The notes under the pieces: generated by a model
Told to the model about the DNA's origin: nothing
Database searches by the model: none
The model's input: the letters and a program-made list of their open reading frames with translations, nothing else
Position numbers and translations under genes: made by a program
NCBI GenBank assembly: GCA_043824495.1
Contig: JBDRSV010000018.1
Span: forward strand, 1-21,271
Direction: 5' to 3'
Length of the DNA: 21,271 nt
From: Candidatus Aenigmatarchaeota archaeon
GTDB lineage: Archaea > Aenigmatarchaeota > Aenigmatarchaeia > QMZP01
Shown: piece by piece, positions 1,927 through 19,364 of the stretch
Numbering within the stretch: position 1 is the stretch's first letter
How the letters are laid out: each line of letters opens with the position of its first letter

Positions 1927-1991
1927 GTTCGACTAAAACCGGTTCCTTTTATAAAAAACTTTTTAAAACTTACTGTTCTATTTTAATTCGT

Positions 1992-2408
1992 ATGATAAAA
2001 CCTAGCCCTGAAGCCATCAAACTTTTTGAGGCTTTGTCTAGTAGGGGAATCACAAGCAGATTAGAAAAGGTGAGCCCCATTATCGATCTAACAATAGAGA
2101 GAGCCAAGTTAGATATAGAAATTAGTGATAGTAGACATTTTACTGATTCTGAACAAATGCAAAAAGATTTAGAGAGAAATTATTGGTCTAAAAGAGAGGG
2201 ATATGAAAAAATACATATACCTCGCCGTGTCATTGAGGAGCATCTAGATAAAGTTGCGGATTCTCTAGCAAAAGTAGCAAAGGATAGAATGAGTATACCA
2301 GTAGCAAAGGATAGAATGGGTATACCAGAAAAGAAAGAAACTCCAGGAGATGACATAAACTTCAAAAGAGATTATGGTGACACAGTTGCATATGACTATG
2401 ACCCTTAA
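1992..2408 (+). CDS. DUF559/Vsr-like endonuclease-fold protein, probably degenerate active site
   Basis: Pattern SPEAIKLFEAL...IDLTI..AKLDIEISDSRH...KDLERNYWSKREGYEKIHIP resembles the DUF559 D...ExDGxxH...D..R...L...G pattern. Confidence 0.6.
   Translation: MIKPSPEAIKLFEALSSRGITSRLEKVSPIIDLTIERAKLDIEISDSRHFTDSEQMQKDLERNYWSKREGYEKIHIPRRVIEEHLDKVADSLAKVAKDRMSIPVAKDRMGIPEKKETPGDDINFKRDYGDTVAYDYDP
2274..2327 (+). repeat. In-frame 27-bp tandem duplication (VAKDRMSIP / VAKDRMGIP)
   Basis: gtagcaaaggatagaatgagtatacca (2274-2300) and gtagcaaaggatagaatgggtatacca (2301-2327), 26/27 identical. Confidence 0.95.
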
Positions 2409-2559
2409 GTTACAAATTCTTCCACTTCAGGAATCTGAAGGATAGTATAAACGCAAAGTGAAATAGGATTCAATAACCAAAAAAACATGCTTAGATATAA
2501 CTTATGGAAAAGATATGGATACTCCTTACCAAATGATAAAATTGAGAAAATAATGAGAA

Positions 2560-2737
2560 TGGGCCCGGAGGGATTCGAATTCGTGGGACATAAGGTTTCC
2601 CTGACGTCCTCCCACGGCCACCCGGATTTCTGTCATCGCGAGTAAATTCGCTATACACGCTTTTAATGACTTTAAAAGCTTCATCGGGTTGCTCAAAACA
2701 TCCCACGGATGCTCTAACCAGACTGAGCTACGAGCCC
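2560..2737 (-). tRNA. tRNA-Lys(UUU) with three introns. Exons 2737-2706, 2679-2672, 2625-2611, 2579-2560; introns of 26 nt (30/31), 46 nt (38/39) and 31 nt (53/54)
   Basis: The spliced sequence GGGCTCGTAGCTCAGTCTGGTTAGAGCATCCGGCTTTTAACCGGGTGGCCGTGGGTTCGAATCCCTCCGGGCCCA (75 nt, no encoded CCA) folds as a cloverleaf with loop CT-TTT-AA. Each intron forms a 4-bp central helix with two 3-nt bulges (CATC/GATG, TTTT/AGAA, CGTG/CACG). Confidence 0.88.
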
Positions 2738-2859
2738 ATTCAGATCTTTATTCTCGATATATAGATCTATACTCATAATTAGTGGAATTTGTTTATTTAA
2801 ATCTAAATTTGGGATATTGGCACTCAAAAACATATAATTAAGGAAGATAATAAGATACT

Positions 2860-3801
2860 ATGGGAAAAGAGACCTATGATGTTCTGATTGTCGGAGGAGG
2901 TGCAAGCGGCCTATCTGCAGCACTTTATACTTCTAGAAGAGGTTTGAAAACACTCATTGTAACTGTTGATATTGGAGGACAATGTAATCTAACTAGTCAT
3001 ATAGAGAACTATCCTGGCATAGATAAGACATCTGGTTGGGCACTAATACAGAAAATGCAAGCACAAGTAATAGGATTCGGTACTGAAATAAAAATAGGAA
3101 AAGTGATGTCAACAGGAAAAACGAAAACAGGATTCTTTGTAAAGACAGCTGCTGGTGATAGATACGAATCTAAAAGTCTCATACTAGCTCATGGAAAAGC
3201 ACCAAAGAAAATGGGAATAAAAGGAGAGGCTACGTTCCTTGGTAAAGGAGTTTCTACTTGTATTGTATGTGATGGTCCTTTATTTAAGGGGAGAATAGTT
3301 GCCGTTGTTGGGTATTCTGCGTCTGCAGTTGAATCAGCAGACGAATTAGCTATCATAGGGAAGAAAGTTTACCTTGTTTGTGATAAAGAAAAAGTATATG
3401 GAGAGCAAGCAAGAATAGATGATCTGAAAAAGAGAAAAAATGTTGAAATACTTCTCAATACTAAACCGAAAGAAGTAAAGGGAGAGAAGTTTGTTAAGTC
3501 ATTGATTGTAACACAGGGAAAGAAATCAAGAGAAATCCAGCTTGAAGGTGTCTTTGTAGAGCTTGGTTATATTGTTGACACATCAAATGTGAAGAATTTG
3601 GTAAAGCTAAGTCCAAAAAACGAGATCATAACTGATAGAACAACAAAAACTTCTCAGCCAGGGGTTTTTGCAGCAGGTGATGTAACAGACATTCCATATA
3701 AGCAAGTTGTCATATCTGCTGGTGAAGGCGCTAAAGCTGGATTAGAAGCATATCATTTTGTCAAAGGAGATAAAGGAGTTAGAATTGATTGGGGGAAATA
3801 A
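2860..3801 (+). CDS. trxB: Thioredoxin reductase-like flavoprotein with degenerate NAD(P)H-binding motifs
   Basis: GGGASG FAD motif, GGQ...IENYPG, redox CIVC in [11 protein letters not shown]-terminal [14 protein letters not shown]...QVVISAGEG. Confidence 0.9.
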
Positions 3802-19169: not shown

Positions 19170-19293
19170 TATATATTTATATGAATTTTTTGTTATAAAA
19201 ATGCAAATTGGATAGGTTTGTTAGGGAGACGCAACTTCAACTTAAACGCCCTGACCAATATTTTACAACAGGCTCGCATGATACTGATTGATG

Positions 19294-19364
19294 AGTAGGA
19301 CGCCCCGGGCGGGCTACAGATCTCAATTATAACGCCGTGAATCGATTGATTTATATATTGAATC
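19294..19364. repeat. Intergenic repeat copy E4 (divergent)
   Basis: AGTAGGACGC (9/10 to E5) + CCCGGGCGGG..TTATAACGCC..TATATATTGAATC. Confidence 0.55.

Follow-up and report, generated by a model that had tools for sequence, protein, structure and literature searches.

A sequence that reads as a tRNA-Lys(UUU) gene with three introns lies on the minus strand of the window, that is, the whole stretch of 21,271 nucleotides that was analysed (contig C18 of a 1.01 Mb assembly in 29 contigs, ~35% GC and 80% complete). Features of the locus are collected in Table 1. The exons were joined in silico to give 75 nt, which ARAGORN called as tRNA-Lys(ttt). The original prediction had proposed that introns of 26, 46 and 31 nt leave a 75-nt Lys cloverleaf and that one exon is just 8 nt long, and both points were confirmed. 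In the spliced molecule the acceptor stem is 7 bp and the anticodon stem 5 bp long, and the D arm is normal. The anticodon loop has 7 nt (CUUUUAA), the variable loop has 5 nt, and the T loop reads UUCGAAU. The sole flaw lies in the T stem, where U50 and U64 are mismatched (U50.U64). CCA is absent from the gene.

Table 1. Features in and around the tRNA-Lys(UUU) gene, in window coordinates, listed in the direction of transcription (BHB, bulge-helix-bulge)
Feature	Position	Strand	Length (nt)	Description	Basis
Possible archaeal TATA box, TATATAT	2757..2763	-		20-26 nt upstream of mature 5' end	sequence
Whole tRNA-Lys(UUU) gene	2560..2737	-	178	4 exons and 3 introns	in-silico splicing, ARAGORN; BHB-aware genome scan
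Exon 1	2706..2737	-	32	tRNA positions 1-30: acceptor 5' strand, D arm, anticodon stem 27-30
Intron 1, site 30/31	2680..2705	-	26	full hBHBh' motif	BHB score 7/7
Exon 2, GCUUUUAA	2672..2679	-	8	position 31 and entire anticodon loop 32-38; anticodon UUU
Intron 2, site 38/39	2626..2671	-	46		BHB score 7/7
Antisense in intron 2, UUAAAAGC	2659..2666	-	8	perfect antisense of exon 2 (positions 31-38)
Block after antisense	2632..2658	-		GUG 2658-2656, UAUA 2655-2652, variable hairpin 2651-2638, GAUGAC 2637-2632
Exon 3	2611..2625	-	15	positions 39-53: anticodon stem 3' strand, variable loop, T stem 5' strand
Intron 3, site 53/54	2580..2610	-	31	HBh' motif	BHB score 7/7
Exon 4	2560..2579	-	20	positions 54-73: T loop UUCGAAU, T stem 3' strand, acceptor 3' strand, discriminator A
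Possible archaeal terminator, T-rich tract	2538..2559	-		two T4 runs, directly after discriminator base	sequence

Junctions were scored against one fixed geometry, in which four base pairs make up the central helix, three make up the inner helix and each 3-nt bulge is cut behind its second nucleotide; all seven pairs form at each of the three introns. The helices and bulges that had been listed for the three junctions were all present. Intron 1 has the central helix (H) CAUC/GAUG, bulges CG^U and AA^G, the inner helix (h') GGG/CCC and an outer helix (h) GAG/CUU. Intron 2 has H UUUU/AGAA (one G.U), bulges AA^A and AU^C, and h' GUCAU/AUGAC; its 3' bulge is imperfect on the outer side, where G31 and C32 face it, and is not a clean 3 nt. 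Intron 3 has H CGUG/CACG, bulges GG^A and AA^U, and h' GGAC/GUCC, without an outer helix.

Chance controls were run on the introns and on the whole interior of the gene. With exons fixed and introns shuffled (2000 trials), a 7/7 BHB was kept in 0.15%, 0.6% and 0% of trials at the respective junctions, and at all three together in 0/2000. Interior dinucleotide shuffles gave an ARAGORN-accepted tRNA from strict BHBs in 0/300. Alternative parses were enumerated by combining the relaxed BHB candidates that lie between the two acceptor strands, which gave 6,789 combinations. 47 of these were accepted by ARAGORN, which on its own is therefore a permissive, weak filter. The three-intron Lys parse was the best of the 6,789; no other brought together three complete motifs, standard loops and a single stem mismatch. 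That a different parse is correct, whether in its intron borders, in a canonical 37/38 cut or in its anticodon, is scarcely credible. The 46 other accepted variants carry Leu, Phe, Ile, His or stop anticodons, and a 37/38 cut also yields a 75-nt Lys(UUU), but every alternative has weaker BHBs, extra stem mismatches or odd loops. The 37/38 cut of intron 2 was rejected: it pairs 2/4 central-helix positions and leaves U38, against A38 in all orthologs. A better parse with a different anticodon, which the original prediction had named as fatal to it, was not found among the 6,789, and the UUU anticodon holds.

In the unspliced window no tRNA was reported by ARAGORN or by Rfam (gathering cut-off and E<=10), as expected from the earlier suggestion that standard annotation may miss the gene. 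In the ~1 Mb assembly, ARAGORN run without introns gave 15 tRNAs and Rfam gave 22 above its cut-off, about half a normal set. Because these counts are so low, heavy tRNA disruption is the rule in this genome. GC-rich islands were scanned with a strict BHB-aware procedure, which gave 17 loci, recovered the three-intron Lys gene and corrected several other calls. Neither a second tRNA-Lys(UUU) nor a tRNA-Lys(CUU) was found in the 80%-complete assembly. Within what has been assembled of the genome, the tRNA-Lys(UUU) described here is the sole Lys tRNA gene, which answers, for that 80%, the question raised with the original prediction of whether another tRNA-Lys(UUU) exists.

Several other RNA loci were noted. 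Two calls mislabelled by ARAGORN were reassigned after removal of BHB introns: C26:28511-28606 to tRNA-Asn(GUU) with one intron at 30/31, and C13:548-649 to tRNA-Arg(CCU) with two short introns. A tRNA-Ser(UGA) gene (C8:7343-7525, plus) has an intron of ~98 nt with a perfect box C word (AUGAUGA) and may host a small guide RNA. In the window, positions 19213-19346 form an intergenic GC-rich island (~50% GC vs 31% around) that has no Rfam match. It holds ATGATACTGATTGATGAG, in which box C-, D'- and C'-like words are packed together, and possibly represents a gene for a small RNA. A 5S rRNA gene lies at most 1-1.5 kb from tRNA-Lys(UUU) in several relatives (L003:133-246, L012:217-330, L016:2620-2733 and L004:2114-2279); none was detected in the window. 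The L004 match spans 166 nt vs ~115 nt and may hold an insert.

Orthologs were first found by DNA search of 40 related genomes. A match in a genome of the same genus (G001) was set aside, having turned out to be tRNA-Arg(UCU). A pattern of exon 2, a loop, the antisense and RUG was then searched in 301 genomes of the class, and matched in 33 of them, exactly once each and nearly all in the same order; the reversed pattern, run as a control, gave 0 matches in the 301. 29 orthologs were spliced-aligned to the mature sequence, with junctions accurate to ~2 nt. These tRNA-Lys genes, all of the same order, contain 1-5 introns each at recurring sites. The intron at ~38/39 is present in 29/29 (the retrieval pattern requires it). 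The intron at ~30/31 is found in 23/29 and is precisely absent in the remaining 6. T-loop introns occur in ~20/29, D-arm introns in ~8/29, and the 53/54 intron in 4-5/29 plus one tRNA-Lys(CUU). One gene (L048, genome G008) has ~five introns, and T-loop introns reach ~500 nt (L037, G035 C14) and ~364 nt (L057, G024 C37). Precise intron-less alleles, uninterrupted across the site, exist at 30/31 (6 orthologs) and at 53/54 (many orthologs), so that the inserts behave like discrete introns.

Covariation was seen at the splice motifs. The H helix of intron 1 is CAUC/GAUG here and CACC/GGUG, CGCC/GGCG or CAUC/GGUG in relatives, and the h' helix of intron 2 is GUCAU/AUGAC here and GCCAU/AUGGC or GCCGU/AUGGC in relatives. 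Relatives' intron 2 has a 4-nt 3' bulge, which strict BHB geometry does not fit. It can mostly be read as 37/38 or 38/39, because the first nucleotide behind the 5' cut is, in the majority of relatives, identical to the last one of the intron. In this genome 38/39, one nucleotide off the canonical site, is the sole workable reading. Intron 2 is an ortholog and one-nucleotide variant of the canonical-site intron. The earlier statement that no intron sits at 37/38 is thus literally true of this gene and does not carry over to the orthologs, most of which allow either reading.

Intron 3 has 31-nt homologues in three tRNA-Lys(UUU) orthologs and one tRNA-Lys(CUU). In three relatives, read by eye, its H helix is CGAG/CUCG and the T stem is perfect; here H is CGUG/CACG. 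The U50-A pair of the intron motif here replaces the relatives' A50-U, and U50.U64 is left in the T stem. The A50-to-U change has been repaired in intron 3 and left unrepaired in the T stem, which speaks for selection on splicing. In all likelihood, positions 2560-2737 form a functional tRNA-Lys(UUU) gene whose three BHB introns are spliced by an archaeal endonuclease and RtcB. Alternatively, the locus would be a tRNA pseudogene in decay, its three insertions never excised, with a working tRNA-Lys(UUU) in the unassembled 20%; the U50.U64 mismatch and an 80%-complete genome in which the endonuclease gene was not found would be in keeping with this. Such a pseudogene is very improbable, given that perfect BHB motifs are kept at all three junctions, that the A50-to-U change is compensated inside intron 3, that the same introns recur with covariation in orthologs across the order, and that the assembly holds no second copy.

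The splicing enzymes were searched for in this genome and in the 40 relatives. EndA was not found in the 80%-complete assembly with Pfam PF01974, TIGR00324 or tblastn with the relatives' proteins, and two sites syntenic with relatives' EndA genes hold other genes here. An EndA domain match was obtained in 39/40 relatives, the same genus included (example loci L031:1656-2825, minus, and L021:1474-2004, minus). In ~38/40 the match lies in a ~400-aa frame with two adjacent C-terminal-type domains, an epsilon-like pattern; the type was assigned by alignment in two genomes (G023 and G001) and from the two-domain pattern in the other 36. The G023 protein was aligned with the ARMAN-2 epsilon2 enzyme (4FZ2) over residues 14-387 (E 2e-96) and keeps Y160, K161, Y236, H251 and K282, residues shown to matter in the ARMAN-2 enzyme (PMC12397907). 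The same-genus homolog (G001) has 309 aa and covers ARMAN-2 residues 106-387 (E 8.5e-81). The epsilon2 type, one chain of ~390 aa built from three units, with the Y-H-K triad for catalysis and Y160/K161 in its ASL loop, is represented among the relatives by the G023 protein. A separate alpha-type EndA gene of 176-184 aa is also present in ~22 relatives. In the available part of PMC5829648, epsilon-type EndA is reported from Micrarchaeum and Mancarchaeum only. The original prediction had expected a broad-specificity endonuclease in this lineage and had suggested that the EndA architecture be classified. The expectation is supported by the epsilon-like pattern in ~38/40 relatives and by the alignments of G023 and G001 with ARMAN-2; the classification as epsilon-like stands for the relatives, and no EndA was found to classify in this 80%-complete assembly. 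RtcB ligase is present (PF01139, contig C2:319-3141, plus, E 5e-144) in a 1002-aa open frame. Its Pfam match is split, with profile 1-52 at 319-480 and profile 49-426 at 1969-3141; the insert of ~500 aa is possibly an intein.

Expression of the gene would proceed as follows. A pre-tRNA of ~178 nt would be transcribed, and the introns at 30/31, 38/39 and 53/54 would each fold with flanking exon into a bulge-helix-bulge. The splicing endonuclease, probably of the broad-specificity epsilon type as in nearly all relatives, would cut after the second nucleotide of every 3-nt bulge. The exons would be joined by RtcB, and CCA would be added later. Introns 1 and 2 are probably removed stepwise, one and then the other, because the 8-nt exon 2 is held in the mature fold by G31-C39 alone; it would be lost if all four nearby cuts fell at once. 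In both the MFE and the centroid fold of the precursor, an 8-bp hairpin of exon 2 with UUAAAAGC forms instead of the intron 2 BHB. Since the MFE fold prefers this exon 2/antisense hairpin, a rearrangement or a protein would be needed for the intron 2 BHB to form.

The interior of intron 2 was compared among 27 orthologs. The order is fixed: the anticodon loop is followed by 5-11 nt of loop and then by UUAAAAGC, after which come RUG, a 4-mer with A as its last letter, a hairpin, RAUGRC, AGRA and the 3' splice site. In this genome UAUA stands in the place of a box D' and GAUGAC in that of a box C'. The D'-like 4-mer (YNNA) is CUGA in 5/27 tabulated orthologs and in 2 further ones, UUGA in 3/27 and UAUA here. 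Many compensatory changes were seen among the 27 in the hairpin between the D'-like and C'-like words. At least one G.A pair is always possible in YNNA-hairpin-RAUGAC, and position 2b is G in 4 orthologs. RAUGAC-AGAA is kept in the L061-L063 clade, which builds its BHB from other sequence.

A related intron was found in another tRNA gene. The tRNA-Arg(UCU) gene of this genome (C12:7364-7490, minus; L071) has a 52-nt intron at 37/38 with the layout of Lys intron 2: an antisense to its own anticodon loop (UUAGAAG), a hairpin, CUGAUGAG, and AGAAG before the 3' splice site. The tRNA-Arg(UCU) gene of the same genus (L072, ~320-470, minus) has UUAGAAG, AG, a clean CUGA, a hairpin, UAUGAC and AGAAG, together with a T-loop intron. 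Counted from the 4-mer abutting the hairpin, the fifth pair falls on C32 in Lys and on U34 in Arg(UCU), in a duplex that is short, with the target near its end.

Known classes of RNA element were compared with the block. Standard kink-turn readings were rejected, as no register fits all orthologs. An H/ACA-pocket reading leaves just 1-5 nt on the 3' side of the pocket, and a hammerhead-like reading has the motifs in the wrong order. The antisense was also considered as a means of retaining the 8-nt exon while intron 1 is cut out; this was discarded, as six orthologs without intron 1 keep the antisense. In its layout the block is like one half of a box C/D guide such as that of pre-tRNA-Trp, but neither a terminal box C (RUGAUGA) nor a box D (CUGA) stands at the ends of intron 2, and the intron 2 module has no Rfam C/D match. 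Fibrillarin and L7Ae are encoded in the genome; a Nop5/Nop domain was not found anywhere in the assembly. The position directly upstream of fibrillarin is the usual nop5 site. Two ORFs of 233 and 187 aa, with no Pfam match, lie there (C25:15742-17015; L070:742-2016, plus).

On these data the conserved block may have no function of its own, being structural filler or an oddity passed down with an old intron that merely tolerates splicing; we put this at a little short of an even chance. Such a block need not have the terminal box C/D pair, the Rfam match or the Nop5 domain that were sought here, and its box-like positions would be free to vary, as they do where the 2b A is G in 4 orthologs and where CUGA is a minority form. 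Against it, the antisense and the 3-nt spacer are invariant and RAUGRC-AGRA is conserved while the hairpin between them changes freely, RAUGAC-AGAA is conserved in L061-L063 although the BHB there is made from other sequence, orthologs without intron 1 retain the antisense, and tRNA-Arg(UCU) is laid out alike, with an antisense that matches its own anticodon loop. A more tentative proposal, which we regard as possible though doubtful, is that intron 2 is a conserved cis-acting module made of the antisense, one C'/D'-like kink and a second short antisense that builds the BHB. The anticodon loop would at first be tied up in the duplex, so that ribose methylation is guided (by the N+5 rule, to C32 in Lys and to U34 in Arg) or splicing is timed; the module would then change to the BHB for excision. 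If this were true, intron 2 would be a stripped-down, one-kink relative of the guide in pre-tRNA-Trp, kept in U34 tRNAs across a DPANN order.

The tRNA-Lys(UUU) gene bears on how small genomes are read. In this genome the seeming absence of a lysine tRNA is a failure of detection and not biology. About half of the expected tRNA set was missed by ARAGORN and Rfam, part of which may lie in the absent 20%. As detection by these programs is incomplete, counting the tRNAs of such genomes calls for intron-aware tools. The range of heavily disrupted tRNA genes and of the epsilon-type endonuclease is extended here to a DPANN order outside Micrarchaeota. The 8-nt anticodon exon and its antisense module offer a testable case of whether archaeal tRNA introns are kept for a job, be it splicing order or modification guiding.

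The three-intron tRNA-Lys(UUU) belongs to the known archaeal multi-intron tRNA genes. These are known from Thermoproteales, Korarchaeum, Nanoarchaeum and ARMAN-1/2 (PMC4033280) and, in the available parts of two further sources, from other DPANN lineages (PMC5829648) and Asgard archaea (PMC11291895). As in Thermoproteales (Sugahara et al. 2008; PMC4033280), there are several BHB/HBh' introns per gene at non-canonical sites in the anticodon stem and T arm. Thermoproteales have up to three introns per tRNA gene, linked to a broad-specificity endonuclease (PMC4033280). The host here differs in being a DPANN archaeon with ~35% GC and a genome of ~1 Mb, in an enzyme that is not alpha-beta, and in orthologs that reach ~five introns, with T-loop introns up to ~500 nt.

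With ARMAN-1/2 (Micrarchaeota; PMC3488258, PMC12397907) the genome shares its small size, DPANN affiliation and non-canonical, multiple introns. Relatives carry a full-length homolog of the ARMAN-2 EndA with the catalytic triad and loop residues Y160/K161 conserved (G023). The phylum is another one, however, about half of the relatives add an alpha-type gene, and the enzyme was not found in this assembly. As far as the available text of the sources goes, Atabeyarchaeia and Freyarchaeia (Asgard; PMC11291895) and DPANN with L3-loop alpha4 EndA (PMC5829648) are similar in that most tRNA genes are interrupted, many by multiple introns and at non-canonical sites. Standard predictors give incomplete tRNA sets there too, according to the same parts of both sources (PMC11291895, PMC5829648). 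The lineages and, to judge from those parts, the endonuclease types differ from those described here. An anticodon-antisense module is not described in the portions of PMC11291895 and PMC5829648 that were available.

The intron 2 module is the part of the gene that could be new. Its nearest counterpart is the box C/D guide reportedly described by Clouet d'Orval et al. in 2001 in the intron of euryarchaeal pre-tRNA-Trp, in Haloferax volcanii. In both cases an anticodon-side intron is complementary to its own anticodon region beside box-like motifs, and the guide pairing and the BHB fold are mutually exclusive. Unlike pre-tRNA-Trp, the introns here have one box-like pair without a terminal C/D, an antisense of 8 nt and a hairpin between the boxes. 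The tRNAs also differ, being Lys(UUU) and Arg(UCU), in which the N+5 rule would point to C32 and U34, respectively.
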